From positions 1-64,000 of the forward strand of contig JAQGDQ010000172.1 in the NCBI GenBank assembly GCA_030141605.1: a stretch of DNA of 64,000 nt, given 5' to 3'. This DNA comes from Tubiluchus corallicola (taxonomy: Eukaryota; Animalia; Priapulida). The notes beneath the pieces are model-generated. The model worked only from the letters and a program-made list of their open reading frames with translations. It had not been told where the DNA came from and did no database searches. Shown piece after piece: positions 663-63,457 of this stretch (position 1 is the first letter of the stretch; the number at the start of each line of letters is the position of its first letter). The position numbers were made by a program, and so were the translations under genes.

Positions 663-756
663 GGTTTATTAATATTTGAGGTGTGCTGGCCGCTTGCTGT
701 TTTTCTTATCGTCTGGATTATTAGAAGACAAATACCTCCTGTTCCCAAGCCAAATT
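663..756 (+). CDS. ABCA exon N1: TM1 (GLLIFEVCWPLAVFLIVWIIRRQIPPVPKPN)
   Basis: tttcag|...|gtaagt, 94 nt, phase 0-1; resembles ABCA1 LLEVAWPLFIFLILISVR. Confidence 0.95.
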
Positions 757-6700: not shown

Positions 6701-9700
6701 ATCCTGTTAGTTGTGAGTCCTTACTACCAGGGTTGTACCAAATACCAATGGTCGGGTTCGTGAACTATGAACTATGAATTTATTTTCACACATCAAAATA
6801 CAATATCATACACGTTAATAAACTTTAAATAAAATGATTTGAGTAGTAAATGACGTAATAATAGCAATGGTATAAGAGCAATAAACCTGAAAGTTGAGAA
6901 AGGAAAACATAATATGTAATTACGACTTTGAGTGAGCCTTAAAGAGTGAAAAAATTTTTTTTAAATAGTTACGAATATGAATTATGTGATTATCTGTCAA
7001 TGTACCACTTACTTGTATTACAATGCACCATATTGCTTACTTGTATATACAATGATATATATATATATATATATACTCAAATTTAAGTGGGGGAGAAGAG
7101 ATTAAATTATACATTATACTTGTAATAATAACTGTAATTGTATAGAACATTTAAATATAATTGATGGTAGTAATGTAGCCATCATAGCCATTAAAGATTG
7201 GCTATGGTGAGGGAGGGGGGCAAATTATAAGAATATTAGTGATTCATTCGCAATTAATGTTACAATAATACATTCAAAATTTTTCGTATCACTGGTATTA
7301 GCTGGTTATAAGCTAAGAGCATTTTCCTAGTGGAAACAGATATAGGCTGCGATGAATGAATAATTTCATTTTAATTGATTTATACCTTTCATTAAAAAGT
7401 CGTAAAGATACCTATTAGTAAAAGAAAAACATTAGTGCAAAAAGACACACGTGCACAAAAAAGAGAAAGAACCTCTTAGGTATTTCGGATTTCTTAGTCT
7501 CTTGAACGTCCTTAGCTTGGGAACCTACTATAAAAAATATATATATATTTATAGTAGGGTCCCGAGCTAAGGAAGTTCAAGAAGTTCAAGAGTTATATAT
7601 ATATATTGTATGAGGTCGAAGCTAACAACCTTTAACAAAGCGCGTCCCAAGATTAACAGTTTTACTTTTTGGCAGTCACATGTGTTACTAATTATCGGTT
7701 TTCTAATTACTTCAAAATTCTTCGATTTTTCACTTGACTGTTTTGAAGAATTTCGACTACAATCTCGGTGGTAATATCGAACTTTCGTTAACTGGTAGTG
7801 CCGTCAGAGGTACTTTTTTAAGTTTAAGTTTTTTTTTTCTTGTTTAGCGCCCAGCAACTGGTTTCGCGGTTGGCACCCTACATGAATGACCCGGAAATAA
7901 AACATGCATTGGAAAGCGTGCCGGAAACGCTAGACATAATTGACGCAGTGACATTGCCATTTAAAAATAAGAACATCAAAGATTTAATCGGTAAGTGTGG
8001 CAACAGAGCCTTTGCAACAGATGAGGCAAAATGCTAATATAAACTTCTGAGACTTAGTTTTTTGCTATGCAGATTTTAGTAGTGCTAAGGAAATTTTGCT
8101 ATATGACAAAGTCGTGGGCTTCTGAACAAAAATAAGATTCTCCAATGATCAGTGCATTGCAAATGTATAATTAAGAACTTACGTAACAACATTTTTCTTA
8201 TATATATGAACAAACTGTAATGCAAAAGTAATATCTTTTTGACGTTCTTATTCCAATTTTCCTATCGTATAACATGGTATGACCAACTTATTAGACTTCG
8301 CAGACCATATTGGTATGCTTATAACATTTGCTAGTAGTGCACTATTTCTTTTGTATCATTCGTTATAGTTTGATATTAACATAACTCAACTTAAAAAAGG
8401 GACGGAATGTCAATACGATATGTGAAATGTTAGTAAACTTAGTTTTGACATGCAGAAAATGGTCTCACAATTGGAGATCTGTTTAAGAATCAAGAGGAGC
8501 TTGTGCCTTACCTGAGTGAGGAGGAAAATATCTTACCTGAAAATGTGACCAAAACTCTTCTGCAATCTAGGATTAATATGGATGAGGTAAGCGGCTCACT
8601 ACTTTAAGTATTCTGAGTTTGACTGACCAGTTGTAAGGTTGTTTATTGCCCGTAGTGCTTGGTTTACTTGCTGATGAAGGTGATGGTTGGTTAGTCATTC
8701 AGTTGTAAAGCTGGTTTTGCTTACCTGTTTAGTTTACTTGACCAATCATTTCAGCGCTCAAGGATAATGTAAATTGAACTTGATCAGTCATTTCAGCACT
8801 CAAGAATAATGTTCGTCAAGAATTGAACTAGGGGTTACATGCCTGATGAAATTTGCAGTATGAGATCCGAGTATTTTTTGTTGAAAGTTTGTTTCTGATA
8901 GATAGACCTTCAAGAAGTTTAAATATCTGGAACGAAATATATATCTATACATATATATATATGTATAGATATGTAAATTTTTTTACTAAAAATTTCTAAA
9001 AATTTCAGTTAGTTTTAAGGGATGCATAATCCACAACATATTAAAAACTAAATTCATTTTCTTATGCCTTTTTACAGACCTTTTTGAACAGTAACACAAA
9101 TTTTATTTGCCTTTGCTGTTAAGTTTAGCCGCAGTGCGCAATGCACGTGCTACTTTCGTTTTCTTTCTAGGTTGTTGACTTTTCGTGGGTAGTGGTCCTT
9201 TTTGCCTTCTATAATAACGTTTTACAGCATACATCATATTTTTCGTCATCATCACCATAATCATAATCAGCAACAGCATCTGCATTATCGTTATTAGCTG
9301 TCTTAGTGTCTTGTTGTCCTCAATCATCATCATCGTCATCATCACCATCACTATCATCGTTATCACCATCATCACTATCACCAGTGTTATTATTGCAATC
9401 GTCGTCGTTATCTACATCATCTTCGTTGTCATCAAAAATATCATAATTATAACGATCTGTGTTTTTTCAATAACATATTATAAATCTCTTGGTTATTCTT
9501 ATGCTTTATAGCTAAGGTAGCATATGACAGATTGCAGAATGAATTGACAGCTGTTATGTGATTTTGCAAATAATGACACTGTTATTAAATTTTCCTATTT
9601 TCCCAAAAAGTCACGACCGACTGTCCTATTCTTTCATGCTACGAAATGTTTGCACTTATTATTATTAGTGCAGTAAAATGACTTTTGTTAAACTGCGCTA

Positions 9701-12700
9701 GTCGCAATCAGAAATAGAAACATATTGTGAATCGATCAATACTAACAAATCGTTTATAGGACGAATTGTTTACTAGATTGAATGACAATGTTGGCGCAGT
9801 TACATTGCCTTGGACTGTTTCTGCAAACGGCTATGTTGTTACATAGTTAAAACTGACAAAGAGGGGACAATATAGGAATGGGATTCACGTTCAGTTACTT
9901 GTAATTAGCAAATGATCATGGCGTTATGGTAATTAGGGTAGATTGTGAAGCCAATTAACGGAATTTGTTGGCATAAGTGTAATGTGTCTAGGAAAGTTGT
10001 ACGTATTGCTAACATTTATTGATTTTTAATGATGTTTTTGCACTGGGCCGTTTGTTCGACCTTGAATTATGTCTAAAATCTAAGCTAATGCCTCAGGGGT
10101 TACTACACGCCGGTTCACATTAATCTCATCGTGTTTATTTAATAAAGCAAAAAGGCGCGAGTTCGGTGTAATACCTGACTGACAGTGCATGTGCTGTAGC
10201 TAATTCAGTCATCATGATGTTTATTGTTGAGGGCTGTTTTTTTCCCATCATATTTTTCGCTTGAGGGTTGGATGCAGAGTTCCGTCACTCAGTTTTTACT
10301 CTTCATTTGCGCCATGTACAAGCAAATTATAAGCTAATGGTGTTGGTCGTTTGGAAGAACCAACTTCCTACAGTTGAGCATTAATCAATCACAAACTTTT
10401 ACCAATATATGAATATTTGAATCCAGGTAAAAAGTCACAGATAAAAAAGTCGCAAAAAAGTTACAGGAAAAAAGGCAATGAGAAAAACGAATAACCCTAA
10501 CCTTATTCCTAACCCCAACCATACCGCTGTTTGGTGGCTGTTTATTGCCATCACATGTAAGCAGTGAATTTACTGGTGATTTTACTTTTCTTTTAGTTGC
10601 GTTTGCTATTTTTGTTTCATACTGTTTTTGGGCGCTAGCATCTAGGCCTAACGATGTTATCTGTTGGTTGATGGTTTATTGCAGCTTGGGAAATACACTC
10701 TATTAAGTAAAAGCTTGTAATAACCCCTGTCTAACGTCGTTAAGTTTAGGTCATAAGTCATTTGAAGGTTTATATTAAAGGCACACATACAAGATAGCAG
10801 GTATCGTAGTTGTTAGAAAAAAACATCAGTAGCCACCTTAGTTGTGTCTAACAAACCATAAATAAATAAAATTCAAATCATCAAAATGATTTGGTAAAGT
10901 GAATGAAAATCATCAAAATTAGTTACAGCGCGTTTTCTGTCGCGAGTTTTCGTCTGTCAGCGAGCTGCTTTGCGAGTTACTGTCAACAAGAAAGTAGAAT
11001 CTCCAACAGTTGCTACGAGTCGATTTACTGCCTAGTGTGAAAGCTTGGCGAGTTACCGTTGACACTTCTCACAAAAGTGAGTGTCAGCTCGCAATTAACT
11101 GTCGGAAAGTAACTCGCAACTTGGGTTACATGGCAAGATTACAACGCGAGAAAGCTCGCTAGTCTGAACCCACCGTAAGGGAAAACGATTTGGCGCACTA
11201 TATTTTTGAGCATTTATTATTATTTTTTGACTCACGTACTCAATTCCATTTCATTAGAAACTTGTGCTGTATGCATGTTCCCTTTGTTCGCCAATGTTGT
11301 ACCATAGCTGAAATGCATTTTTTGAAGGTGTAGGCTAGCCTAAAAGTAACCACTGATTGACAAATCATCTGAATTTCGATCAGTGGTATTCTCTTGTTTA
11401 CCTGACAATTGGTAATGTCTATTATTTGGGCTCACTGGGTCTGTAAGTTAGTTTTCGATTCCACGAAATCAATGGCTATCAGAAAGGATACTTTTCTTTT
11501 TCAGATGTTTTCCTCCTCAGGTTATGTTGACTTCAAGGGTGTGGCCTGCAACGAGTCAGCTCTTCAAGAGTATCTGATACTGTCGCCAGGGGAAGCAACG
11601 GAAGAAGAAGTGTCCAAGGCCTTGTGTGCATTGGATAGTGATCACATTCCTGTACTTGTGGAGGCAGTGCAACAGCATTTAGATGTGGAAAAAATTTTCG
11701 ATGTTGTTAGTTGATATTCATAATTGGATTTATTTTGAAATTAGGTGGCCTTAACTGTTTCCAATTAGAATAGGAATTACCGTCAAATACACAACAATGC
11801 GAAGCAGCCCAAAGACTGTTCATTTATCTGTAAAACTTTGATTTAAATTTTGCTTTTCAAACATAAAAAAAATTGTTGGTCTTGTACTTGTTAATATAAA
11901 AATTGCATCTAGAGTGTAGCTATGTAAAATCACACCGTAAAGCAGAAATATTGAAAAACTTAACGAAAGATATCAAGGAAATTGAGAAAATAAACTGCAG
12001 CGAAGCAGACATTGGGGTTATAGTCCAACAAAATAATTTTTCAGTGCAAGTTTTTGATTATTACAAGTAGAAATAGTGCTACTGAGCTAGGCAATAATTA
12101 GTTAGTTAAGTGTACCTATCAAACTGCATGTTTCTTCAAAAATTAGTTTTGTTCCAATCAACACATTATAGGATCTTTTCTGCTCATTAATTATTTTCAT
12201 CTTCAGTGCAATTATGTAATGGGCTAATGTGGGTGCCTCTACTCCACTGAGAAGTTTTACGTCCTGTACATAAAGAAACTCTGCAAAGTACCAACAGTAT
12301 AGCTAATCTCTAAGTTTAATTAAACGTAAGAGTGCCCATTGGCTGTTTTTCTATTTTCTTTGCCGGTTGTGAATATGTGATGGAACGTGCAATTTGTCTT
12401 TTAGGTGTCATCGTTTTCAAGTGCAGTTGGCGAGTACGATTTAGCTGTAGCAATGCAGGACATTGGGGCCATGCTGGACATGGCTCGAAACTTTTCATTG
12501 ACCAGCTCGCACTCAAACTTTATTCCATACATCGATGACCTAAACGACTGGACAAAACACTTTCAAATGTTTACGGATAGTTTACAAACCACTAGCGTTG
12601 ATTTCACTTTGTATGTTTGCCCAAATGTTTAGTTACATTTATTATATATATTATAAATAATTAAAAGTGAAGTTTTTCAAATATTATTTTGGTGGCATGC

Positions 12701-51700: not shown

Positions 51701-54700
51701 GGCCCAGCAATAAGGGAGAAAAGTTTGCGGAGAAAGCAGTACATTACGACATCTTGAAACGGAGAAAAACAAAATTAAATTGAAAACACTCTGTCCCATT
51801 GTGCCATCTTTAGAAACCAGAAACAGAAAAGTAAATGTAACTAACAGGGCAGGCATTTTAATTAAATTATGGTTTTGTGGATAATGATTGAATAATTAAA
51901 TGAGTAAAATAGAAAAATATAGTCAGTTTATATTATTTTAGTCATTAGAAATTAGCAATTGTAGAAATGTGAGAATTATCTGTATGCTGTAACTGTTTAG
52001 TCAGTTTGTGTTAACTACATATGTAGCAAAAAATTTCTGCATCAGTAAAATTCTAGGCATTGCCACATCATCCGCCGAAAAAATTGTAGTATATGAGTGT
52101 TCAAAGCAGAACGTGACAGTTCCTTTAGGTGCTGTGTCATGCATTGGGTGTTGTGCTATAAAAGAGGCTGCCCTGTGCTCTCAAGTTCATTTTGTAAGCA
52201 TACAAACTGTAAGCTTCTTTTAAAAAAGGAAAAAAATTGCGAAAATCTATGACTAATCTGAGATATAAGCTCATCGTCGTCATGTGACCAATCGGTGCAC
52301 CAATTTGCTATGTTTTTGTAACTGCACTTTTGCATACATCAGTGGTTCCCAACCGGGGGTAAAGGGGTACCCCCTGGGGGTACGCAACAGCAATGCCAGG
52401 GGTACGCAGAAGGTGTGTCAGATCGACACATTTTTTTCTTTCTGTAGCCGGTGAAAAGGGTAAAATACACCAAGTTGCAGCATCGCGATATTCTTTCTAC
52501 AGGTTAGGCAATATTTCACAAACAATATCATTCCTGCGCAGTGTGCTAGAAACGCCCACGAAAAGCTTATATTTTGTCGCTTTGTTTGTGCTGTATTTGG
52601 CTTTCGAGGTGTTGGTTCCATTTGTGACAACATACAAATGTGAGCTAGGCTTCAGTGCAATGCTACATTTGAAGACGAAGGCAAGAAACCGTTTGGATTT
52701 GAGGAGCGACATGCGAGTCGCAATATCAACAATTAAACCTGATATCAAAAAACTTGTTGATAATCATCAAGAACAGCGTGCGCATTAATTATGACTGCTG
52801 TAAAGATCGCGTTTCCTTGTATTGATGTTTTCATATTCGAGAAAGTTGTTCAAATTACGTATTTCTTAATAATCAGTGATAAAATTTATGTTTTCAAAAA
52901 AAGTTAAAATAAAAAATGTCGATAATATTAATCGTTGTTTTCTGGAAACTGGTTTTTCAAACGATTTGTTGAAAAATATCAGGTGGGGGTACGCTGAAGA
53001 TCGCCACATTTAGAAGGGGTACTTGGCAAGGAAAAGGTTGGGAACCACTGGCATACATGTATGATCAGCAGTGTAATATTATTGACTATGTTTTATTTAA
53101 TAATTCCCTTTCTTTTTTTTAATATTTAGCTGAAAATTTGACTGTTGACGATTTATTTCAAGACTTTCCACATGTGAGAAAGTTTTTGAAAGATGCGTTT
53201 CGCAGTGCACCCTTTTTTCTACCTGCTCTTCTAAGAACTGATATTAATTTACAAGTATGTGTTTTTAAATATTCAGTTTTTGCTTATAGCTTGTTTCAGT
53301 TACTAGAATTTAAAACTTGAAGTAAAATTTGTATCTGTTGTTTGTGTAGCAGTAGTTGCTTAATTGCAAAATCTTGCATGACCAATAATGCTTAGCTACT
53401 GGAGAATAAAAGTTTTTCTGAAATTGCCTGCATATTTTTTAATGTAATTTTTTGTTTCCCTAATACCTGCTTAAGTAAAATATATTGATGTTAGTTTAAG
53501 TGTCGTCCTATATTTTTACAGAGTTACTCTTCATTCAATGAGACGTGGTTATGTACTGAAGACAGAAAGCTTGGAAATCTTCTAGTGATTAGCCCAAAAG
53601 TTAATACATCAGCATTGGAGCAACTACTGTGTATTGACAACAATATTACTGCAATACAGATGGAGCTTCATGCCATAGCCAATAATAGCAGCATTGCTGA
53701 AATAGTATGTGTTATATTGTTAGTAATCTTAAGAGCTAATGTGCCAGTCATCTTAGAGCTGCAATGTGTGTTTTTTCTGGGAAATGCCAGCACTAGCCTA
53801 GCACTTGTTTTCCCCATTTTTCCCATTTCCTTGGTCCAAAATGTGCAAACATTTTCATATTGGGCAAACTCTGTTAAAAAAAGCTGGTTTATTTAAAATG
53901 AGTTTTGTTGGGCATGGCCCGTGAATATATTTGTCCTGCCTGCAATTCTTAAGGTATATTCGTTTAGGTAAGCGGCCTCATGATGAACAGAACAAGAAAC
54001 AGCTAGGAGATCTGGGGGAGTTCCCCTATTATGCTTTAGGGCTTACATAGGGGCAAAAACCGGTGGATTTTCCTTGTTTTTAGCCACTTGAGGCCTTTAA
54101 TGACTAAAAAAAAGGTTGGATCAAAAAGCAGTTTTTCTGGATTTTTTGACATAATTTAGGTCTTAATTCAAAAACAGCAAGTGTTTTTAACCAGCGAGTT
54201 AACTAATTTTCATCAACTAGCCTTTATACATTACCTGGTATGTCTTGGCCTCCTTAAACCATTTATCCATGAGCAATCACTGAACAAATCAAACACAACA
54301 AGTTGCTCTAACTTCAGTTTACATGTTGATATACTTCTGCCAAAGATAGGCATGTAACTGATTACAGCTAAATTTTGTTGTGACATAGTGCATCTTTGTT
54401 GCACCTAACTTTTCAAGTTTAAAGCGAAATATGTTTCTATGCGGGAAGATGAGTTAACTCAGAATTCTTGCGCACAACTTCTCAAGAAACATTTTTCCTT
54501 TTCCCTGACAAGTTGTAAGAAAAATGACTTACAACATGTTATCACAAAGGGGTAGTGACTAAATGTGTGAGCTGGCAAGATATGTTTTTTCTTTAGGTGC
54601 AATTAGCTGTAATTTTAAGGCTCTGGGTCTACGACCGTAACAACCCGGTGCACTTTAAGCGCTGGCTGCCTGGGAATTGCGTACTACAGAACAGAAAGCT

Positions 54701-57700
54701 GTAATTTTTATTACAGAGTAGAACTGATGCCTTATTAGATCCCTCATTTATATGTTTTACGAATGCATGCAAAAGCCGTTCGGCGGAAAATAACAGTTTT
54801 CATAAATTGTTTCTAAAATAGCTGTAATTCAACTAAAAAGGTTTTTTCAAAGCAGCAAAGAACGACAGTTTGCAATTTGAGCCGTATTCCAGATTTTTAA
54901 TGCACTCTGTCTTCGCAGAGTACATCTGGCATAAAGATATGCGTCAGCACTACTTTCAACTTTTTTGCTGCTTTTTGTACAAATGAGCTGGGAAGAGGGA
55001 GTGTTAGATAGTATGTTGTTCGTCATGTAAAAGATGCTCAACTTTATTCAATTTAATTTCTGTTTTCTGACATGTAGTGAATGCACTTGTAGTCGATTTG
55101 TTAGCAAAGATGTCAATGTTCTATATAAATATTATTAGATAGTAGTATTAATCGTGGGTAATGAATCAAATTCCATCATATTTTCAGTTCACGGAAATGC
55201 CTGAGGAGGGACCTTTTAACTTGACATCAGTATTTATGAGTCTTTATCGGCTAGTGACAAATCTGCATAGCCAGGATGTTTTCACAAATTTTACAGTGTA
55301 TAATTTCTTTAATTTTGATGGTGATGCTTCGGAGTATGAAAGAGGTTTGTCGGAAACTGTGCCAAGAAGTTCATTAATGCCATTTGTGAGGCTTGTAAAC
55401 ATGTAAGTTCTGTATATTTTTATGTTAAATTTTTAATTTTAGAAATTCCTTGATTTTCATTCTATGAAAGAAATGAGTAATATTAGAATTTTAATATCCT
55501 GAAAAGTTATTGACATTTTGTTTGATATCTTGTTTGATCTAATAGCAAACGTTTTACTTTTTTGTTTTTTAAATATTTTACTTAAATATGAGGGAAATTT
55601 ATGTATGATTGTTTCACTATAGAAAAGCGTTTTTATTTGCATAAGAGCTCATCGTCATTTAAGCCTTATAAACATTTTTATGTCATTGTTATCATTGTTA
55701 TCAACTCAATGCTGAAAAAGTTGTTTTGTATAGATTTTCTCCGCTGTTGAACAATCTTAATGCTCCATTTGCTGCAGCCTTTAAGCAAGCAGAAACTTTC
55801 CTTATTGTTCATAAAGAGATCACAAATGTGATAAACAAGAAACTTCTGGCCCTCCTAGGTGAGCATTGCCTTTAATTACTAAATTATTATGTGTTTAAAG
55901 CGGCATCTGTAATTAAACTTTTTTTTTCTGTTATAAATAAATAAATTTTGCACTTTTCTGATGTGTTGTTCTCTTTAATTGTTTAATTGTTACAGTATTG
56001 GCTTGAAAACATTGCTGATTATGTATTTTTATCTAGTTGGTAACTTCACCCTAGATGATGTATTACAAGATTCCCCAAATACCAAGCAGTTTCTGGAAAG
56101 TGTATTTGAAAAGGCTCCATACTATCTAGAGGCTGTTATGAGTGCCGATATTAATGACCAGGTACTTATTTGTATTCATCAAGCAATACATGTAAATAGC
56201 AGTGTATAGTAGCTTGAATTTGCTAAAAGGTGATGCTATATGAAATCACTTGCTACCTCATTTGTCTTAATAACTAGACAATTACAACATGATCTTTAAT
56301 ACCGCAAATTTAAAGTTTGTTAGGTATCTTTTGAACATCTGTCCGTGCGCAAAATTTGAAATTCTGTGTATCATTTGTCAGTCGCAGAATCTGCTATTTG
56401 TAATCATGTTTAGGACTGATTTAGACACTCTTTCAAACCATATTCACCCTTTTAGTACTGCTGTTCTGATTAATTCATTTCATCAAAAGTCAAATCTATG
56501 TTACAATACACTGGGGCTGTAGTTTCTAACAAAGCAGGTGAAAATTTAAGATTTAAGGCATATTTATGGCAAAGAAAATTTATTCTTCTCCAGAAACTTT
56601 TAAACTAGATTTTCTATAGTTAACATTAGTATTAGTGATTCTTTATTTGCTTTAGGCAATTCATATTTTAATGTAATTATACACTTCATTAAATTTTGAA
56701 ATTGTTTTTCTGTATTTTACTTGTCACAAATTTTTATTAATTTTAACACAAACACAGGCTTATTGACTGAAATTTTACAAACTGATCTTTGCTTTTTGTC
56801 TTATTTTACAAAGTGATTTATAATTTGTCTATTTTAGTGCTTTTGTTTAATTTTGTTTAGTTTTTTTTATTAGGATTAATTTTGCAAAGAACTTTAACTT
56901 CTCTAATTTAGTACTTTTATTTAACTTTTGCCTTCAGGCAGTATCTAATTTTACAAAGTATTTTATGATTTGTGTGTTTTGGTAGTTTAGTTTGTTCTTA
57001 GTTTTGTTTAATTTTAAGGTATTGTGATTTTATTTTTAACGATGACTAACATGCCATGGACCATTATTATATTGTGTATACAATTTAATGTGATCCATGT
57101 AAACAATAAAATACTGTTCTATTCTAACCTCAACATTCGACTAAGTGCTTGATCATAAATTAACATTATTGCTGATTGCTGAATACAATAAGAGTAGGAT
57201 TTTTGCACACTTCACCGTTCGTTTCTTCTACTCAGTTACTGCAGGACAAAAAACATGGAGCATTAATTAGAGGTAAAACTTTATAAGAAATAAAATAACA
57301 GTTATATTATAATTTCATGTTGATTCATTGCTACCAAATATTACGATCGTTGATCGTTTTTGATGGTCGATGATTGATCATAGAAATGAGACCGATTCAC
57401 AATACTACTTTTAGGCTTTCATATCGAACAAGATATCATTGTGCACTGAAGATGGCAAGCTAGGAAATCTGTTAATATTCGGAGGAGATGTTGATACATC
57501 GGTGCTGGAACAGTTGTTGTGTGTTGACACTAACTTCACTGCAGTGCAAGCAGAACTAAGCAAAGAATTTTCCATATCAAAACTTGTCAAGGCGGTATGA
57601 TATTGACTTTTGATGTTCACAGTTAATTTTTGGAAAACATGTCTGCACAAATGCTTCTACCTAATGTAGTTAGGAAATGTTACCATTAGTAAATAAAAAT

Positions 57701-60700
57701 GTATTTAATAGCTATTAAATTTATCCAGTTGCTTTTCTGTTTTTCTGTAATGTTCATCTTTTAGAATTTATCTGAAAATAAGTGCACAATTCATAGATGT
57801 TCATTTCTTTTTTGAATGTCTGAAGTTATTACCTTATTTGATCAGGCATTGTGTGCTGATGCCGATGTTTAGCACTTATGTCTGTGAATATTAACTGGCA
57901 TTTATGTGTCAGACAATGTATTAAAGATTATTATTATTATATCAATAACAGTAATACTGATAATATCTCTAATATATAGTAATAAAATTTCCGTTTCTTA
58001 CACGTTAGTTTGCCGAGGAGAATACCAACAAACTGTCACTGCGTAACTGGACTTCGACAGTTCTTAGCCTTCAGGGATTTAGCAGCCTTCTCGATGGACT
58101 GCGATATCGCCTGGCTTATGAAGCACCGAATATTTATGATTTCTTTAATTTTGGTGGTAACACAACGATTTATGAGCAGCATTTAGTAGCAGCGTTGGAG
58201 GCTAATTCTGCAAGAAATAAGGAAATGGAAAAGTGAGTCATCTTTAGTAATTATATTGACACTTCCGTAACAAATTTCGCTAATCAATGCATCACTGCTT
58301 TTAAAATCCATTCTACAAAATTTGTTTTATGCTGCATTGTGCATAGATGCACTGTGTGCTACATTCTCTGTTTTTGACACATTTTTATTCATTTTAAGTT
58401 TAAGTGTAAATTTTCTGTCAAACTTCATACTTGTATGTCTGGCTTAGCTTATTCTCAGTAAAAGTGAACTACTATTATATACTGTTTAATGTGTGGACAC
58501 CATGAAGTCTGATGATTCGACTTGCTGTCTAGTATGTTTCATGTGTTAACTCTATTGCTCTGTGCTTTCTTTCATACCTAATTTCACTGCCGAGTTTATT
58601 GATGATAAAAACCTTTGGGGTAAAAACTTTGTAGGTTGATCAGTCAGCTGGATGAGCTTATGCCTTTGCTGGAAAATTCTACCGTTGGCAGAGAATTGAT
58701 TAGACAAATCCGCTTGCAAGATATCACAACACAGATGCTAACCGCAGAACTGATGAAGCACCTGTGTAAGTTGTGATTTTTCGTAAGCAGCACGAACAAG
58801 TGAACTATTCTTATAAAAAGTCAGCTGGTTGAGCCATATTGCTGAACGCTAGAATAGTGTTTTAACACAGTAATCATTGTTATGAATTACCATAATGCAA
58901 AGTGCAAGCTTATATAAGTTATATTGTGTTACAAATGAAAGTGTGGCTTGAACAGAAACTGTAAAGGTGAAATAGGGAGTAAGACTGACCAACAATATTT
59001 CGTACAGTATGGTGAAAAAACGTGAAATGCTAGGGAAGAAATTAAGGATTGAACTGATTATGAAGTTTTTTGAGTTTCAGCAAAACAAGCATAATTCGGA
59101 ATTGTATGCCATTAGTATTCCAAAATTGATTATGCAGCCATAAAGTACTAGATACTAGATACATAATATACAAGAAACATTTGGGGTAGTTTTAGATAAA
59201 ACAGTAAGTTTTTGGTGTTTTCGTTAACATACCATTGCACTATTTTCAGCCAATAGAACTTTAACTCTCAATGAAATGGTTAATAATTCGACACAATTCA
59301 TTGAAGTACTGGATGCTTTAACTGCAGTGAGTGACTCAGCTTTACAGGACTTCTTTTCGGCGGATTTTAAGTTAGAAAAGGTAACATTTATTTCTTTATT
59401 CATGAACTTTGCCATTTTTTGTTTTTCAAAAGTTTTTATTCAGTTTCATTTACTTTAGGGCAGAGGAGGGGGAAGGCAGAACTTTGTTTTTCATACTAGT
59501 GAACTGTAAATTTGTAATCTGCTCGCCAACTGATACAGTCTGCGAAACAGTACTAGATGCCAGACATTGGCAGTGATGGGCTTCAAGGAAGACAGGACTG
59601 CAAGACAGACAGAACACAGCACTAGTGTCCTTTTGAAACTGTGTGTCCACTTAATTAGTTAATTCTTAGAGACCAAATTTTATTGAAAGGCAAACTTGGC
59701 ATTGCGCTTAACGACACATTGAGTCACTGCACAAAGTGACTGGAACCACGATGATTGCTAAAGCATCACAGACTTTAGACATAAGAGGAAGAAAAAAATT
59801 GATAGTTTTTTTACTTATCTTTTGTCATTTTGGACTTGTAGGAGGGACTTTCTAAATTCTTGTATGTTGACGCACACTTGCCAGATGGCTAGTGAGCTTT
59901 GTCCAAATGGAAGCAATCAGCCATCAAGTAGAAGAACCTTTAAAAAAGGGCATCTTCGGATGGTCAGTTTTGGCCAAGATATAGTTACCTTGGAACTCAC
60001 CACCTCGTGTATGCAGACATTTACTGGCTTTGCCTAGTTCAGAGTGGGTACTTAACTACAGCCAATCAAAAATGAACATCCAAATTATAAAACTGAGAAC
60101 CTTTTGCAGTTTTACTTCATGTCCATGGTGTATTTCTAACTGCAACATTCCCGAGTGGATTAGTATTTTAGTGTAGGCAGTAGTAATACAAGAAATATTT
60201 TTCATATTGCACCAGGAAAATAATCTCACATTTTTTAGTTTCAGCAGTTGATTTCGTCGGATGATCCACAACAGATGTTGTGTAATACTTCTCTGGCAGA
60301 CATTATCACTCTGCAGCCAACGTCTGTCAGCTCACTAGATGATGTGAAACAGTCAATCTGTTCTCTTAACGTTACTTTGCTCGTCAAGGAGTTAAACATG
60401 CAGCCCAGCAATTCATTCCAAGCTGAGGTACCTTTTCACTTTTCATACACTATGAGGGTTTTCTATATAGGACTAAAATAGTTGTGTGAATAATACCAAA
60501 TTAACATCTCTATGTGTATTAATGTCTAGTAATGGATAGTAATGATACTAACATGAAGAAAGAATAATACGTTTGATTCTTTAGTGTATAGAAATTCAGC
60601 AGTTAAAAGTGAGTTGGTTTGATGCAGTCAAACTGAAATACCTATAACATCAGCATTAAAAGCTTTTTTAGTTGCTGTTGATGAGAAATGGTTTGATTGG

Positions 60701-61183
60701 CAGTTAGCTCTATCTTCTGTAAATGGATGAAATATCTTGCATTTCAAGATGATGATAATGATAATGATGATGATGGTAATGGTGATGATGGTGATGACTA
60801 CGGCGATCAACGATGAGGATGATGATACTGGCAGTGATGATGACACTTTTTCTGAAGTAACTTTTGGTGCTTTCTGTCTACGAGACAACATTGTAGCAAT
60901 AATAGCGTTACGTCTAATTCGTTTTTGTTTTCAGATATATGAACTGTATCGGCCAGATGCAAACCTAACTGTGAACTGGTTAGAATTTTTCAAACACCAA
61001 GAGGAATATCAGCTAGCACTTGCTAATGTTGTTAGAGAATCAACCAGAATGAAAATGAAATCATTTGAAGAATATGTTGATTTTGGAGGCTTTGACAGGT
61101 TCTTAAAAAGCCTGGGCGAACAACTGATGAATGACAGCAATCCCGAAAAGTATGTACTGCATATGTTTCAAAAAGCACTTATG

Positions 61184-61220
<37 letters not shown>

Positions 61221-63457
61221 AGTGTGAATAACAATTATTAAAATGTAATTTTTGTACAGCTTTGATTTTTTGTTTATTTTTTGTAGATTTTCTTTAATTG
61301 TTTTATTAAGTTTTTTGTTTGTTTTCTTTGATTTTTATGTTATTTCAGTATATTTCTAGTTCTGCTTTGGCTAATGCACTTGTTAAAATACTTTTACTTT
61401 TAAGATTGTTTCAAGTATGGACTGCGTTTGAGCCAGTAGTCATGCAGGATATGTTACAGAAACCATCTCAGCGTTCCAAATACATAGTAACAAATGACGT
61501 TCTTTCTGCAGTCTTCAAAAGTCTGATTCGTTTCGGTATTTTCATATATTACTCACAAGTTGTTTCAAAATATAATGCATTAAAGCGTTCTGTTTATTAA
61601 TAACCTTTATATTGAAAAGTCTTGCTTAATAATATTTTATTTGTACACCAATTTTGTGACTTTTTTAAATTATTCAATTCCATATTCAAAATTAATATAA
61701 AAAAAGCCTTCTCACAGTTTCATTGTGTGCACGCCCAGTTGCTGTAGGTCAAAGGTTAAGTGTACCACAGCCATCCTTCTTAACTACAACCGTCACGTGA
61801 TGTAAAGGAAAGCCATCTGCCACCTCAGTTCAGTAACTTCAGTTGTTTTATATAGACTTTACTTAATTATGCATGTGGAATCATTTACTAGCAGCATCTT
61901 ACTTGGGAACAAGAAAAAATGGACTGGGTAAGGTTCTAGCTAGCTGTTAAAACTGTTACTATTACAACAGCTTGGGCTACGAGGCGCTGTCAAGTATACA
62001 CAAATGCATTGTCTGGTAAACTTAACCTTTGGCCTTTTCACGATCATCATCAATTACTGGAACTGTAAAAGGTCTTATTGATACAAAAGACCCTATTTAT
62101 TTTGTATTTCAGATTATAATTTATCTCTGCATAACCTAAATGATTTTAGTGACATGGTAGCACATTTTCTGCGAAAAGACCTTCACTACTATTATGTATG
62201 TATTCGTTTTATAAAGTACTCTATTTTTGCTATTAATCACTGTTACGCAAGCCATTTGCTTTCTGAAAACCTGTCTTAATGAGATATAACTAGTTTCTGA
62301 ACACCAATGTAAAACAAGAATGTCCTTAAGGAAAAGCTCTTCAATAAGCAGAGATTAGTTAGTCCATAGAGAGACATGGAAAATTTTTCTGCTTTAAAAT
62401 TTGAATTTGTTATTCTAAGTCATCTCCAGTAAAGGCTAAAGGATAAATCACAGTTTAGCATTAATTGGTTGGCCACATAGCTGTTCATATTTTTTTTTTG
62501 TTTATTAGTTGTGTAAGTTGAAGTTTGTTTCAGATTGTAGTAATTTGTTCTTCACCATGTGGGGAATGTTAAAGTCTCATAGACAGTGGTGTAGATAAAA
62601 TAGGGGAGCAACCGATCCCCAAGTACTTTTTCAAAAAGCTGGCACCTGTTTTTTAACTCTTTAGTTCACTTGTGCAGTAAAAGTCAAATCTTTTTTACTT
62701 TTTTAATCACATGACCTTGGAAGAATTTCATGGAATCATTACTTTATTTCTGTATTTCCTTTACAACTGTATCTTTTTTGTGTTTTGAAAATTCTTCACA
62801 AAATTAAAATGTATAATGAAGGCATTAAAAATTTTTTGATACGTGTACGCCACCGTTTTTAAGTATTTGCTCCCTGTAACTTTAGAACCTGGCTGCACTC
62901 CTGGTCACCGAAAATGGATGTCATAAATACGTGATGCCAGTTCTTGTCTCGAAATGATCACCATGCTGACCTTTAAACAGCTTCTTCCGTATCTTGCATT
63001 GTGGCTGTAGCTCACACCTAGAATCATCAGGCGGCTGACCAGGATTCGGTTTTCAAGTATTGAAAAAATGGCAGCCTTAAATCTTGCTTCATAATTTTTG
63101 GTCCTAATTTTTTTTGAAATTATTTAGTTTCCTCTATGCTCTAGTTAATTTGATGCTTGTTTGTGTATATATTGTAATCATACTTGTTTCCATTTATCAC
63201 TAGAAATTTGTTTATTTTATGGTGAAGTGTTGTATATATGTTTTATTTCGTTACATTTTTAGATTGATAGGCTAAGCCAGGTTTCGTTGATACAATCCAT
63301 TGTGTGTGACAAAGTATCGTTTTCGGATTTGTTGAAAGATGTCAATATTGATGCAGATGCAGTTTCTACTGCATTATGCAACAGTAATGATACCTGGTAC
63401 TTTACCCTCGAGGAGATGAACATACCTTTTGCTGAAAAAGAAAACATCAGTCGCACG
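663..63457 (+). CDS. Giant ABCA-subfamily ABC transporter, partial (64 exons; TM1 plus a tandemly amplified ECD1; start exon upstream, rest downstream)
   Basis: ABCA N-terminal motif (WPLxxFLI...CxxxxxALPSAGxLPFxQxxxC) across exons 663-756 and 6103-6223. All 64 GT-AG exons join in phase with no stop (10,617 nt). Orthology within ABCA1/2/4/7/12/13 cannot be resolved from this window. Confidence 0.92.
1898..2440. mobile_element. Kolobok-like MITE (543 bp)
   Basis: TTAA on both sides; TIR RRGAAAACCGGACGATTGT and ACAATCGTCCGGTTTTCTT; purine-purine termini. Confidence 0.78.
6103..6223 (+). CDS. ABCA exon N2 (CEYDARALPSAGVLPFLQSMVCSLDNECRSPDYEASKSPP)
   Basis: ttcag|...|gtaaga, 121 nt, phase 1-2; ABCA PSAG motif; absent from the ORF track. 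Confidence 0.95.
7501..7581. repeat. Inverted repeat (hairpin), 34-bp arms with (AT)n spacer
   Basis: CTTGAACGTCCTTAGCTTGGGAACCTACTATAAA ... TTTATAGTAGGGTCCCGAGCTAAGGAAGTTCAAG, 3 mismatches. Confidence 0.9.
7848..7990 (+). CDS. ABCA exon N3, D-type (AQQLVSRLAPYMNDPEIK...IKDLI)
   Basis: tttag|...|gtaagt, 143 nt, phase 2-1. Confidence 0.9.
8456..8586 (+). CDS. Module 1 exon A (ENGLTIGDLFKNQEELVPYL...LLQSRINMDE)
   Basis: tgcag|...|gtaagc, 131 nt, phase 1-0; resembles ABCA1 LKLQDFLVDNETFSGFL. Confidence 0.9.
9228..9450. repeat. Degenerate (ATC)n microsatellite
   Basis: catcatcaccat... Confidence 0.85.
10925..11175. mobile_element. Possible PIF/Harbinger-like MITE remnant
   Basis: GC-richer block with repeated GCGAG/CTCGC motifs, ending CTCGCTAGTCTGAACCCACCG then TAA; left TIR degenerate. 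Confidence 0.35.
11505..11705 (+). CDS. Module 1 exon B (FKGVACNESALQEYLIL...KALCALD)
   Basis: ttcag|...|gttagt, 201 nt, phase 0-0, two Cys; resembles ABCA4 DIACSEALLERFII...YALCSL. Confidence 0.9.
12405..12610 (+). CDS. Module 1 exon C
   Basis: tttag|...|gtatgt, 206 nt, phase 0-2. Confidence 0.87.
12868..12998 (+). CDS. Module 1 exon D (IDTFLNDLDPMLQDNPKWNELK...)
   Basis: ttcag|...|gtacat, 131 nt, phase 2-1. Confidence 0.87.
14014..14366 (+). CDS. Module 2 fused exon A+B
   Basis: ttcag|...|gtgagt, 353 nt, phase 1-0, two Cys (ICQN...ICKD). Confidence 0.88.
14391..15298. mobile_element. Tc1/mariner (pogo-like) MITE (908 bp)
   Basis: TA TSD; 27-bp TIRs CTATAAAATGGGGTGAATAGGCACAGT and ACTGTCCCTATTCACCCCATTTTGCAG; internal copies of the GGGGTGAATAGGGACA motif near 14805, 15034 and 15089. 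Confidence 0.8.
15736..15929 (+). CDS. Module 2 exon C (LDNANKTIANERINWTHAF...)
   Basis: tttag|...|gtatgt, 194 nt, phase 0-2. Confidence 0.85.
16680..16750. repeat. (AAT)n microsatellite; another lies at 16330-16355
   Basis: taataataat... Confidence 0.85.
17374..17504 (+). CDS. Module 2 exon D
   Basis: ttcag|...|gtaaga, 131 nt, phase 2-1. Confidence 0.85.
17534..18445. mobile_element. pogo/Tigger-like MITE (912 bp)
   Basis: TIRs CAGTAGGCGCTGCTTAATAGACTCAC and GTGAGTCTATTAAGTGGGGTTTACTG followed by TA; subterminal TAATWGACTCA repeats. Confidence 0.8.
19386..19483 (+). CDS. Module 3 exon A, short (ALLANWLEIFHSVSNYEAAKNAMQIVTDPENLA)
   Basis: tttag|...|gtaata, 98 nt, phase 1-0. Confidence 0.78.
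19840..19958. repeat. ~56-63 bp tandem duplication
   Basis: ATACCAAATGCTGATAGTTTGCTTC...TTCTTTGGATAC twice. Confidence 0.85.
20463..20633 (+). CDS. Module 3 exon B (ILCSEV...ITCNQ)
   Basis: tttag|...|gttagt, 171 nt, phase 0-0. Confidence 0.85.
21079..21287 (+). CDS. Module 3 exon C
   Basis: ttcag|...|gtaaga, 209 nt, phase 0-2. Confidence 0.85.
21483..21616 (+). CDS. Module 3 exon D (MSVATLELGPIAENNSDVWAVAG...)
   Basis: tacag|...|gtgggc, 134 nt, phase 2-1. Confidence 0.82.
21668..21938. mobile_element. Shorter inverted copy of the 17534-18445 Tigger-like MITE family (271 bp)
   Basis: TA then CATTAGGTGCCGCTTAATAGACTCAC; 21815-21938 is the reverse complement of ~17534-17700, and 21668-21760 of ~18350-18445. 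Confidence 0.78.
22038..22129 (+). CDS. Module 4 exon A, short (GQKEYFEELVMSGDGAEIVRNSLEMLIDPKK)
   Basis: aatag|...|gtttga, 92 nt, phase 1-0. Confidence 0.78.
22171..22905. mobile_element. Non-autonomous DNA transposon (MITE, 735 bp), Merlin-like termini
   Basis: ~38-45 bp TIRs GGCGCTATTACACTTTCRCACCGCCTAGCTTTT; perfect 8-bp TSD GGAGTTTT. Superfamily inferred only from the GG termini and TSD length. Confidence 0.85.
23109..23294 (+). CDS. Module 4 exon B (VLCDS...FFCDP)
   Basis: tgtag|...|gtaaaa, 186 nt, phase 0-0. Confidence 0.85.
23789..24003 (+). CDS. Module 4 exon C
   Basis: ttcag|...|gtgaca, 215 nt, phase 0-2. Confidence 0.85.
25029..25171 (+). CDS. Module 4 exon D (IGDDTVLLLQEVDNALKGLREWEDVK...)
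   Basis: tttag|...|gttagt, 143 nt, phase 2-1. Confidence 0.85.
25473..25783 (+). CDS. Module 5 fused exon A+B
   Basis: tacag|...|gtatcg, 311 nt, phase 1-0, two Cys (NLCTN...KLCEH). Confidence 0.87.
26549..26677 (+). CDS. Module 5 exon C, part 1 (LDGTLNTTFVKVNWTSVVK...)
   Basis: attag|...|gtattt, 129 nt, phase 0-0. Confidence 0.78.
27017..27084 (+). CDS. Module 5 exon C, part 2 (VNTSILREAVQQYDLYYQPVKSE)
   Basis: tttag|...|gtaagt, 68 nt, phase 0-2. Confidence 0.8.
27486..27643 (+). CDS. Module 5 exon D
   Basis: tttag|...|gtaata, 158 nt, phase 2-1. Confidence 0.85.
28254..28375 (+). CDS. Module 6 exon A (GTDVVIENLLESDELNKLL...)
   Basis: ttcag|...|gtaagt, 122 nt, phase 1-0. Confidence 0.9.
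29429..29641 (+). CDS. Module 6 exon B (VCNDT...LPPNASVD...VCNQVNW)
   Basis: ttcag|...|gtaggt, 213 nt, phase 0-0. Confidence 0.9.
30050..30270 (+). CDS. Module 6 exon C
   Basis: tatag|...|gtaatt, 221 nt, phase 0-2. Confidence 0.9.
31177..31343 (+). CDS. Module 6 exon D
   Basis: gccag|...|gtattc, 167 nt, phase 2-1. Confidence 0.9.
31690..31985. repeat. Degenerate (AAC/AGC)n microsatellite
   Basis: aacaacaacagcagca... Confidence 0.85.
32312..32433 (+). CDS. Module 7 exon A (GGNVLVDNLVKSEELDKVIR...)
   Basis: ttcag|...|gtaagt, 122 nt, phase 1-0. Confidence 0.9.
33163..33369 (+). CDS. Module 7 exon B (ICNET...LPPNSTVD...FCNQVNWTKLY)
   Basis: tttag|...|gtaagt, 207 nt, phase 0-0. Confidence 0.9.
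34655..34881 (+). CDS. Module 7 exon C
   Basis: ttcag|...|gtgacg, 227 nt, phase 0-2. Confidence 0.88.
35505..35668 (+). CDS. Module 7 exon D
   Basis: tctag|...|gtaagc, 164 nt, phase 2-1. Confidence 0.9.
35975..36096 (+). CDS. Module 8 exon A
   Basis: tttag|...|gtgagt, 122 nt, phase 1-0. Confidence 0.9.
36600..36806 (+). CDS. Module 8 exon B
   Basis: tatag|...|gtacgt, 207 nt, phase 0-0. Confidence 0.9.
37509..37726 (+). CDS. Module 8 exon C
   Basis: ttcag|...|gtaagt, 218 nt, phase 0-2. Confidence 0.9.
38005..38170. repeat. 83-bp tandem duplication
   Basis: AAAAGCTTATATTATAGTGAGGGTTTA...AAAATACTTATTC twice (38005-38087, 38088-38170). Confidence 0.9.
38189..38352 (+). CDS. Module 8 exon D
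   Basis: tccag|...|gtaggc, 164 nt, phase 2-1. Confidence 0.88.
39196..39314 (+). CDS. Module 9 exon A
   Basis: tttag|...|gtatat, 119 nt, phase 1-0. Confidence 0.87.
39956..40153 (+). CDS. Module 9 exon B (VCTN...LPPNSRVD...LCLQTDW)
   Basis: tgcag|...|gtaagc, 198 nt, phase 0-0. Confidence 0.9.
41365..41576 (+). CDS. Module 9 exon C
   Basis: ttcag|...|gtaagt, 212 nt, phase 0-2. Confidence 0.9.
42271..42404 (+). CDS. Module 9 exon D (FLNVSLPLLMAQASTFMNKL...)
   Basis: tctag|...|gtaact, 134 nt, phase 2-1. Confidence 0.85.
43247..43582. mobile_element. Degenerate hAT-type MITE (336 bp)
   Basis: CAGGG... and ...CTGGCCTTG termini; near-TSD ACTGAATC / ACTGAATG; subterminal TAGGCAAACTAGGCAATTGCCTA. 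Confidence 0.6.
43751..43866 (+). CDS. Module 10 exon A (DKPRLLHVGQESYKLQYLIRNLWDFIDAWIY...)
   Basis: ttcag|...|gtatgt, 116 nt, phase 1-0. Confidence 0.82.
44037..44249 (+). CDS. Module 10 exon B (FCHF...IPPNSTFN...LCNI)
   Basis: tttag|...|gttatt, 213 nt, phase 0-0; an alternative in-frame donor lies after 44237. Confidence 0.82.
44571..44740 (+). CDS. Module 10 exon C (...PPPWLNDTYWIEAYEDFWTQVQ)
   Basis: attag|...|gtaagc, 170 nt, phase 0-2; 5' boundary less certain. Confidence 0.75.
45229..45353 (+). CDS. Module 10 exon D
   Basis: ttcag|...|gtaagt, 125 nt, phase 2-1. Confidence 0.87.
45627..45751 (+). CDS. Module 11 exon A (EQISIDDLFYRDDQLKKFV...)
   Basis: tttag|...|gtatgt, 125 nt, phase 1-0. 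Confidence 0.88.
46727..46930 (+). CDS. Module 11 exon B (ICEN...LCVLNIT)
   Basis: tccag|...|gtatgt, 204 nt, phase 0-0. Confidence 0.9.
47605..47774 (+). CDS. Module 11 exon C
   Basis: gcag|cag (NAGNAG acceptor)...|gtaagt, 170 nt, phase 0-2. Confidence 0.85.
48245..48381 (+). CDS. Module 11 exon D
   Basis: tccag|...|gtacat, 137 nt, phase 2-1. Confidence 0.85.
49067..49197 (+). CDS. Module 12 exon A (NNGTIDFADMFVDTKELHRLL...)
   Basis: tacag|...|gttaga, 131 nt, phase 1-0. Confidence 0.87.
49484..49675 (+). CDS. Module 12 exon B (FCDEE...LCGLNTT)
   Basis: tttag|...|gtaaga, 192 nt, phase 0-0. Confidence 0.9.
50213..50430 (+). CDS. Module 12 exon C
   Basis: ttcag|...|gtaagt, 218 nt, phase 0-2. 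Confidence 0.87.
50582..50882. mobile_element. Old Charlie/Buster-like hAT MITE remnant
   Basis: CAGTGATTTCCA and GGTTGGAAACCACTG ends resemble the TIR of the 52340 element; TSD not preserved. Confidence 0.45.
51493..51620 (+). CDS. Module 12 exon D
   Basis: cctag|...|gttagt, 128 nt, phase 2-1. Confidence 0.85.
52340..53050 (+). mobile_element. Internally deleted Buster/Charlie-type hAT DNA transposon (711 bp)
   Basis: Perfect 15-bp TIRs CAGTGGTTCCCAACC and GGTTGGGAACCACTG; perfect 8-bp TSD GCATACAT; retains the transposase C-terminal dimerisation segment [37 protein letters not shown]...QEQRAH* (~52600-52788). Confidence 0.93.
53130..53254 (+). CDS. Module 13 exon A (ENLTVDDLFQDFPHVRKFLK...)
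   Basis: tttag|...|gtatgt, 125 nt, phase 1-0. Confidence 0.9.
53522..53704 (+). CDS. Module 13 exon B (LCTEDRKLGNLL...LLCID)
   Basis: tacag|...|gtatgt, 183 nt, phase 0-0. Confidence 0.9.
55188..55402 (+). CDS. Module 13 exon C
   Basis: ttcag|...|gtaagt, 215 nt, phase 0-2. Confidence 0.88.
55734..55858 (+). CDS. Module 13 exon D
   Basis: tatag|...|gtgagc, 125 nt, phase 2-1. Confidence 0.85.
56037..56161 (+). CDS. Module 14 exon A
   Basis: tctag|...|gtactt, 125 nt, phase 1-0. Confidence 0.9.
57415..57594 (+). CDS. Module 14 exon B (LCTEDGKLGNLL...LLCVD)
   Basis: tttag|...|gtatga, 180 nt, phase 0-0. Confidence 0.9.
58009..58232 (+). CDS. Module 14 exon C
   Basis: gttag|...|gtgagt, 224 nt, phase 0-2. 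Confidence 0.85.
58635..58765 (+). CDS. Module 14 exon D (LISQLDELMPLLENSTVGRELIRQI...)
   Basis: tgtag|...|gtaagt, 131 nt, phase 2-1. Confidence 0.87.
59250..59380 (+). CDS. Module 15 exon A (NRTLTLNEMVNNSTQFIEVL...)
   Basis: ttcag|...|gtaaca, 131 nt, phase 1-0. Confidence 0.87.
60239..60427 (+). CDS. Module 15 exon B (LCNTS...ICSLNVT)
   Basis: tttag|...|gtacct, 189 nt, phase 0-0; in-frame alternative acceptors give starts at 60245 and 60248. Confidence 0.85.
60748..60843. repeat. (GAT)n microsatellite
   Basis: gatgatgataatgat... Confidence 0.85.
60935..61149 (+). CDS. Module 15 exon C
   Basis: ttcag|...|gtatgt, 215 nt, phase 0-2. Confidence 0.88.
61186..61216. repeat. (GT)n microsatellite
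   Basis: gtgtgtgt..., ~37 nt downstream of a splice donor. Confidence 0.9.
61405..61535 (+). CDS. Module 15 exon D
   Basis: ttaag| (rare AAG acceptor)...|gtattt, 131 nt, phase 2-1. Confidence 0.75.
62113..62195 (+). CDS. Module 16 exon A, short (DYNLSLHNLNDFSDMVAHFLRKDLHYYY)
   Basis: ttcag|...|gtatgt, 83 nt, phase 1-0. Confidence 0.72.
62584..62903. mobile_element. Possible degenerate hAT MITE
   Basis: CAGTGGTGTAG and CTGCACTCCTG ends; subterminal GGGAGCAA / TTGCTCCC inverted pair; TSD poorly matched. Confidence 0.35.
63263..63457 (+). CDS. Module 16 exon B (IVCDK...ALCNS)
   Basis: tttag|...|gtgaga, 195 nt, phase 0-0. Confidence 0.85.

Follow-up and report, generated by a model that had tools for sequence, protein, structure and literature searches.

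The 64,000-nt stretch of Tubiluchus corallicola DNA analyzed here (hereafter, the window) represents, in our reading, the 5' portion of a gene for a giant ABCA transporter whose first extracellular domain (ECD1) contains at least 16 copies of the segment that forms the lid in ordinary ABCA proteins, and the array of these copies would act as a series of helical units that hold lipid and extend its way out of an ATP-driven lipid exporter (probability of about 0.55 for this reading as a whole). The parts of the reading differ in strength: the giant ABCA architecture as such is close to certain, and a conduit or reservoir role of the array, proposed by analogy, has roughly even odds.

The gene model was built by reading the sequence by hand, followed by tests of candidate splice sites and a script check. 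It extends from position 663 to position 63457 of the forward strand and comprises 64 exons (10,605 nt, encoding 3,535 amino acids), with GT-AG splice sites at all of them and no stop codon, in the order ABCA TM1 exon, PSAG exon, linker exon and 61 array exons (Table 1). The array exons, 68-353 nt in length, make up 15 full modules (612-723 nt each) and a partial module 16, a composition that had been proposed in an earlier note on this DNA and was rebuilt identically; the stop-free frame described in that note was recovered as well, although its length is 3,535 residues, and not ~3,539, unless the second of two possible donors of exon B10 is used (44249, for a total of 3,539 aa, instead of 44237). 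The start-codon exon is upstream of the window, and the N-terminal xLxxKN (WKN/LKN) motif, which is expected there, was not found in positions 1-660. The GC content is 33% for the window, 38.8% for the exons and 32.1% for the introns, and an intron segment of 200 nt has a 0.9% chance of lacking stops in a set frame. No tRNA was found in the window.

The intron phases are strictly periodic along the array: 1>0 for exon A (14/14), 0>0 for B (14/14), 0>2 for C (14/14) and 2>1 for D (16/16). Departures from the four-exon layout are confined to modules 2 and 5, where A and B form one exon as a result of intron loss, and to exon C of module 5 (26549-27084), which is split by an extra phase-0 intron. 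Each of the 16 modules contains exactly two cysteines, 21-28 residues apart and within the B part. Across the 3,535 residues, there is a single strongly hydrophobic stretch (2.57, at residue 2; the next highest value is 1.69), and the model, which ends in module 16 together with the window, shows neither a second membrane helix nor a Walker A or LSGG motif by hydropathy and motif check, as the earlier note had stated.

Table 1. Exons and modules of the ABCA gene model in the window.
Feature	Position	Strand	Exons and supporting observations
Exon N1, ABCA TM1	663..756	+	Hydropathy peak; sole PDB sequence matches are to ABCA1 25-49, weak (E 0.75-1.7)
Exon N2, PSAG and Cys equivalents of ABCA4 C75, C81	6103..6223	+	11/11 PDB matches are ABCA4/ABCA7/ABCA1, best E 0.008
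Exon D0, helix into module 1	7848..7990	+	Phase 2>1 like D exons; 15.8 bits to Priapulus P0200 at 61
Module 1	8456..12998	+	8456-8586, 11505-11705, 12405-12610, 12868-12998; 194 bits to Priapulus module 1
Module 2	14014..17504	+	14014-14366 (A+B fused), 15736-15929, 17374-17504
Module 3, most divergent	19386..21616	+	19386-19483, 20463-20633, 21079-21287, 21483-21616; 19 bits to Priapulus module 3
Module 4	22038..25171	+	22038-22129, 23109-23294, 23789-24003, 25029-25171
Module 5	25473..27643	+	25473-25783 (A+B fused), 26549-26677, 27017-27084, 27486-27643; junction 25783/26549 in run X2
Module 6	28254..31343	+	28254-28375, 29429-29641, 30050-30270, 31177-31343
Module 7	32312..35668	+	32312-32433, 33163-33369, 34655-34881, 35505-35668
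Module 8	35975..38352	+	35975-36096, 36600-36806, 37509-37726, 38189-38352; junction 36806/37509 in run X2
Module 9	39196..42404	+	39196-39314, 39956-40153, 41365-41576, 42271-42404
Module 10	43751..45353	+	43751-43866, 44037-44237 (or 44249), 44571-44740, 45229-45353; junctions 43866/44037, 44740/45229 in run X2
Module 11	45627..48381	+	45627-45751, 46727-46930, 47605-47774, 48245-48381
Module 12	49067..51620	+	49067-49197, 49484-49675, 50213-50430, 51493-51620
Module 13	53130..55858	+	53130-53254, 53522-53704, 55188-55402, 55734-55858
Module 14	56037..58765	+	56037-56161, 57415-57594, 58009-58232, 58635-58765
Module 15	59250..61535	+	59250-59380, 60239-60427, 60935-61149, 61405-61535; 77 bits to Priapulus
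Module 16, start only	62113..63457	+	62113-62195 (short, least certain exon), 63263-63457; 15 bits to Priapulus module 16

Pairwise identity between the modules is mostly 10-20%, with close families formed only by modules 6-9 (20-47%) and modules 13-14 (36%). Mutual profile similarity, which the earlier note had named as a check on the array, was found for all modules: with leave-one-out profiles, 16 of the 16 scored above all 200 shuffles, modules 3 and 4 by a narrow margin. When each profile was also deprived of the close paralogues of the module in question, the A+B halves of 15 of the 16 modules, all except module 3, still exceeded all 200 shuffles. The C+D halves exceeded all shuffles in 2 of 15 cases with a profile made from the window only and in 10 of 15 with a profile of 223 C+D segments from other animals; with the latter profile, however, reversed sequences reach as much as 10 bits, and in two cases the reversed half scores higher than the half itself. 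Thus, the A+B half is firmly homologous among the modules, and homology of the C+D half is backed by intron phase and, more weakly, by sequence. In the six young paralogue pairs, dN is 0.44-0.77 and dS is 2.5 or saturated, which indicates that the copies are old and under selection rather than products of an assembly error; likewise, comparison of the window with itself by BLASTN produced, among exons, matches only for B7/B8 and A8/A9, which shows that the array is no duplication of the assembly. Tandem Repeats Finder detected short intronic repeats only. Phases, profiles and purifying selection jointly support the proposal in the earlier note that an ECD1 of more than 3,400 residues arose by serial duplication of a four-exon cassette.

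A search of sequencing runs listed no RNA run that contains this sequence. Splicing can be followed in part in run X2, which we only guess to be RNA and which comes from a close relative, several percent divergent, and was placed on positions 25001-45000. Short contigs of this run cross the predicted introns 25783/26549 and 43866/44037, both with GT..AG borders, and overhanging letters connect 36806 with 37509 and 44740 with 45229; all four junctions supported by this RNA-like run over 25001-45000 are within modules, and none is module-to-module or connects TM1 with the array. One X2 contig skips 44118-44185 (68 nt) in exon B10, with the loss of the second Cys codon and without GT..AG borders, which may be an assembly artefact, a deletion or a cryptic splice.

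The introns contain several mobile-element-like features. The intron between modules 12 and 13 harbors a transposon-like insertion (52340-53050) that has 15-nt inverted repeats at its ends and is flanked by a perfect 8-bp duplication of the target, a combination typical of hAT elements; the ORF remnant within it (52363-52785) has no Pfam match. Inverted arms of 52 nt, 88% complementary, flank exon D9 (41935-41986 and 43059-43110), and the other intronic inverted pairs (22171/22854, 14389/15272, 17531/18420 and 1876/2416) look like MITE ends.

The identity of the module emerges from profile searches. For a 24-row invertebrate two-module profile, the top PDB sequence is human ABCA4, residues 128-292 (E 5.6e-4), with both cysteines aligned. 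A profile of the A+B half, trained on the window together with earlier invertebrate matches and applied at a cut of 12 bits (reversed controls reach 5.5 bits), detects a single copy, directly following TM1, in each of two ABCA1 proteins from fish (42 and 37 bits) and, at this cut, none in the ABCA2 or ABCA3 rows. Single exons and single-exon profiles retrieved no ABCA lid among the PDB sequences. Judged from these alignments, the ~220-residue module is homologous to ABCA4 128-292, the distal 'lid' of ECD1, and the two cysteines of each module presumably form a disulfide. In the published accounts of ABCA4, residues 101-300 are assigned to the distal ECD region and a disulfide links C75 and C324 (PMC8501128), and the lid is described as flexible, hollow and unassigned in the maps (PMC7932691). 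No Pfam family reached the cut-off for 12 exons or for 3 module-only homologues (a newer release may hold one), and the precomputed domain lists of the giant proteins described below include no repeat family.

The placement of the array within the transporter follows from the cysteines. The window encodes TM1, PSAG and the N-terminal Cys trio (ABCA4 C54, C75 and C81), and up to residue 3,535 there is no unpaired cysteine; full-length giants possess four cysteines after the last module, at approximately +186, +226, +366 and +494. Therefore, the array appears to lie in the loop closed by the C75-C324 disulfide, replacing the single lid segment, and the ABCA1-like spacing of the four downstream cysteines in the giants suggests that the ordinary ECD base is kept. 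ABCA1, ABCA4 and ABCA7 share with the window gene TM1, PSAG and the N-terminal Cys trio and have the module once; ABCA1 and ABCA4 thus contain one lid copy versus at least 16 in the window gene.

The closest relative found is a protein of another priapulid, Priapulus caudatus (P0200; 6,551 aa), with 42% identity over the N-terminus and module 1 and 276 bits for this region, compared to 197 bits for the runner-up. The window model is colinear with P0200 over residues 34-3528 (697 bits). Modules 1-5 match Priapulus modules 1-5, modules 6-9 all match Priapulus module 6, and module 10 matches module 7; modules 11 and 12 correspond to a pair that is triplicated in Priapulus (modules 8-13), modules 13-14 to module 14, and modules 15-16 to modules 15-16, the matches of modules 3-5 and 16 being weak (12-19 bits). 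This correspondence implies a shared set of 12 modules, to which each lineage independently added four. If the window gene is Priapulus-like, it would run on past the window to ~20 modules and ~6,500 aa, a projection that lends support to the guess in the earlier note of a protein of more than 5,000 aa; the P0200 model has neither TM1 nor a canonical NBD1 Walker A and hence is a guide to length only. That the window gene is truncated, decaying or mis-assembled, or that the exon chain is an artefact of the reader, appears highly improbable: the window does end within module 16, exon A16 is short, and just 23 of the 64 exons reach 10 bits singly against the Priapulus protein, but the 64 exons contain no stop or frameshift, the phases are periodic, spliced junctions are seen in X2, selection is apparent between the copies, and the colinearity with Priapulus spans the whole length.

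Proteins of this kind are not limited to priapulids. The metazoan profile search suggested in the earlier note retrieves giants across many bilaterian phyla: a B-segment profile (16 rows) produced 71 matches with E<=0.001 among 1.84 billion representatives, at the top of which were proteins of 6,292 aa with 26 matched stretches and of 6,516 aa with 16. Giants were found in hemichordates (Ptychodera, Saccoglossus), echinoderms (Apostichopus, Antedon, Anneissia), annelids (Owenia, Paralvinella), nemerteans (Tubulanus), molluscs (bivalves, gastropods), flatworms (Macrostomum), a priapulid and arthropods (horseshoe crabs, Oratosquilla, a millipede, wasps). A search with a sea-cucumber NBD1 yielded 413 long ABCA relatives; among the best 120 of the 413, for which modules were counted, 30 contain at least 10 modules, 18 contain 3-9, one contains two, 46 contain one and 25 contain none. 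The typical module spacing in the giants is 215-236 residues, and the detected copy number ranges from 3 to 27. Word-index searches with exon N2 and the B-exon alignment gave no match among proteins of up to 2,000 aa, and none of the 450 pattern matches of exon B16 to metagenome contigs was confirmed.

Full-length giants combine TM1 and 12-23 modules with two membrane domains and two ATPase domains; for example, the 7,432-aa protein of the nemertean Lineus (P0146) contains TM1, 23 modules and both ATPase domains. The database giants (P0200, P0146, P0001) have the same architecture as the window gene, with different modules amplified in each lineage. When motifs are required strictly, the protein is continuous from TM1 to NBD2 in at least 12 models, and so it is in single Logan contigs: each of P0087, P0155 and P0169 (5,329-5,484 aa) is one ORF that takes up almost all of a contig of 16.8-16.9 kb and spans TM1, 13-14 modules and NBD2, and these unspliced-looking contigs would be mRNA assemblies. 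Several database models end before TM2 (P0001, P0004, P0008, P0081) and are probably split annotations; in Owenia, the N-terminal part (P0004) and the C-terminal part (P0152) are on a contig of the same size, 38,876,441 nt, as expected for a split annotation. The Ptychodera model P0001 (6,292 aa, partial) contains at least 27 modules and ends before TM2, so that a length of more than 8,000 aa is possible for the full protein; its residues 2075-3200 consist of almost identical copies of 225 residues each that arose very recently. The giants bear automatic labels only ('uncharacterized', 'ABCA1-like', 'ABCA12/13'); due to the giant modular architecture, these genes are often split or 'uncharacterized' in annotations.

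Models that contain TM1 and modules only (P0001, P0004, P0008, P0088), along with the short forms reported for ABCA13 (PMC7948424), could be taken to mean that the array is released by cleavage, or made from a shorter transcript, as a secreted or TM1-anchored lipid carrier, that is, a built-in apolipoprotein-like acceptor. We consider this unlikely in view of the models and single Logan contigs that run continuously from TM1 to NBD2, the split appearance of the Owenia annotations, and the N-terminal cysteine matching ABCA4 C75, which needs a partner beyond the array.

Two further features of the giants were noticed. In gastropod and bivalve giants (P0153, P0157, P0177, P0178, P0180, P0182, P0189, P0150, P0202, P0207, P0219, P0163 and P0002), Ala takes the place of the final Gly in the Walker A of NBD1 (NGAAKT/S) and NBD2 is canonical, so that these proteins are possibly asymmetric ATPases. 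The precomputed domain lists of the starfish giants P0135, P0136 and P0137 include PF00059, the C-type lectin family.

Phylogenetic analysis links the giants to ABCA12 and ABCA13. In a tree of the TMD2-end and NBD2 region (37 rows), giants, ABCA12, ABCA13 and a lamprey protein form a group with SH-aLRT support of 85, and with the long-branch rows left out (20 rows), the support for giants, ABCA12/13 and lamprey is 100/98; a grouping of the giants with ABCA1/2, an alternative chosen after the first tree had been seen, was rejected (p-AU 0.03). The window gene, which has no core within the window, is tied to this clade through its colinearity with P0200 and likely belongs to the ABCA12/13 lineage. 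The published position of an arthropod clade, consisting of Drosophila CG34120 (ldd) and mite tetur27g01890 and described as sister to ABCA12/13 (PMC3724490, PMC12236025), is, by description, the same as that of the giants; unlike the giants, these proteins are described in the relevant passages without mention of repeats, and the largest mite ABC protein given there is 2,302 aa long. Among arthropod relatives, the profile picks out 3 modules in the 4,022-aa wasp protein P0046, which has 8 spaced Cys pairs.

The array is no visible feature of ABCA12/13 themselves. The possibility, raised in the earlier note, that the same array is already present there did not hold: one module, the last, was detected in 33 of 35 vertebrate ABCA13 rows, ~560 residues before TM2, and two modules in none. 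A profile-profile scan of the ABCA13 ECD1 in 39 windows placed only this last-module site (two windows) above the control, with a probability of 86%; ABCA12 (two rows) has at most a weak last copy, and no self-similarity was observed in the ECD1 of the five ABCA12/13 proteins tested. What the giants and ABCA12/13 have in common is a very long ECD1 and four cysteines after the last module at the same offsets. ABCA13 differs in having one recognizable module, in contrast to the 16 repeats in 61 small exons in the window gene, and has a 4.8-kb exon, going by the title of Prades 2002. Human ABCA13 (5,058 aa) has been called the largest ABC protein and its N-terminal region has been described as lacking conserved domains as well as homology to any known human protein (PMC7948424); its structure has been called largely unexplored (PMC13161189). 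Two lamprey ABCA12/13-like proteins (P0168 and P0171; 7,337 and 7,548 aa) have an ECD1 of ~5,800-6,000 residues with one recognizable module; a published list includes lamprey ABCA12 as a partial sequence of 1,832 aa (PMC4458048). It can be tentatively speculated that ABCA12/13 of bilaterians descend from a modular giant, a pump driven by ATP with 12-27 lid units in ECD1 that formed a continuous lipid conduit, with the length tuned by exon-cassette duplication; under this scenario, the giants (up to 7,432 aa) would be the largest ABC transporters and the 3,500-residue ECD1 of human ABCA13 would be an eroded remnant of the array. Alternatively, the long ECD1 of ABCA12/13 may have arisen by separate growth.

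In helical amphipathicity, the A+B half and the C+D half of the module each exceed 30 of 30 shuffles. The predicted structures are of low confidence (pLDDT 62 and 60, pTM 0.40 and 0.36); the one for two modules consists almost entirely of helix, with pLDDT of 60-80 in A+B and below 50 in parts of C+D. Structural matches of this model repeatedly pair residues ~10-40 with ~165-190, a weak hint which suggests that the D helix of the previous module and the C helix could form a hairpin carrying the A+B cap, such that the structural unit would be D(previous)-A-B-C: up helix, capped lid, down helix. Fold searches with both models yielded no Foldseek match with E<=0.001, and the best Z scores were 6.2, 7.0 and 4.8, none of them for an ABCA protein, which is uninformative, as both models are weak and the ABCA4 maps leave the lid unassigned (PMC7932691). 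The best ESM Atlas scores (0.83 and 0.78) provided no lead. Bridge-like lipid transfer proteins of the VPS13/ATG2 type, which are cytosolic and ATP-independent, are built of a repeating beta-groove; a tandem repeat of one unit lengthening a lipid path is common to them and the ABCA array by functional analogy only, and the ABCA repeat differs in that it is extracellular or luminal, has a predicted helical fold pinned by disulfides and belongs to a pump driven by ATP. A bridge-like beta-groove repeat was discarded as a candidate for the module, given that the two-module model (low confidence) contains no strand of 3 or more residues and that helical amphipathicity is above the shuffles.

ABCA exporters are described as pumping lipid into the ECD tunnel, the hand-off model having been called unvalidated (PMC13161189). 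In ABCA1 and ABCA4, the tunnel and lid are reported to be hollow and hydrophobic, with lipid-like density (PMC8501128, PMC7932691), and for ABCA2, a preprint has cholesterol queuing in the tunnel and exiting by the lid (10.64898/2026.08.25.746927). By analogy, the giant pump would load lipid into the base tunnel of its retained ECD base, from where the lipid would pass into, or be stored along, the amphipathic modules and could be delivered tens of nanometres off the membrane, into the lumen of a secretory organelle or a surface coat. The copy number range of 3-27 fits a spacer as much as a channel. It is possible, if doubtful, that in the same full-length transporter only the membrane-proximal module handles lipid, and the others serve as a glycosylated stalk or scaffold across the lumen or coat, with a function in partner binding or vesicle sorting. 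The 80 NxS/T sequons in the 3,535 residues, the fast divergence of the modules (10-20% identity), the free change of copy number with separate expansions in Tubiluchus and Priapulus, and the fact that the last module is the copy recognizable in ABCA13 are all in line with such a stalk, as is the report that mouse ABCA13 lacking the N-terminal 2,891 residues loses its vesicle localisation (PMC7948424); this deletion, however, takes TM1 as well, so that the array is not isolated, and every copy keeps the Cys pair and the amphipathic helices of a segment that is reported to be hollow in ABCA4 (PMC7932691), a fold that a plain spacer would not need. We retain the chain of lipid-holding lid units as the preferred reading.

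In the full-text literature searched, which covered few subscription journals, there is no description of a tandem ECD1 repeat in ABCA proteins. The view in the earlier note that the architecture is undescribed stands to the extent that no paper was found; the gene is no one-off, given the bilaterian family present in the databases, and apparently represents an undescribed variant of the ABCA architecture that is widespread in bilaterians. The finding defines a 220-residue repeat unit that maps to the lid, the least resolved part of ABCA1 and ABCA4, and of which many invertebrates carry 12-27 copies; the module is a small soluble unit for structural and lipid-binding work on the lid. It also offers a hypothesis, open to testing, on how ABCA12 and ABCA13, two human disease genes, came by their giant ECD1, and provides a clear case of the outer domain of a membrane pump changing length by duplication of a four-exon cassette.
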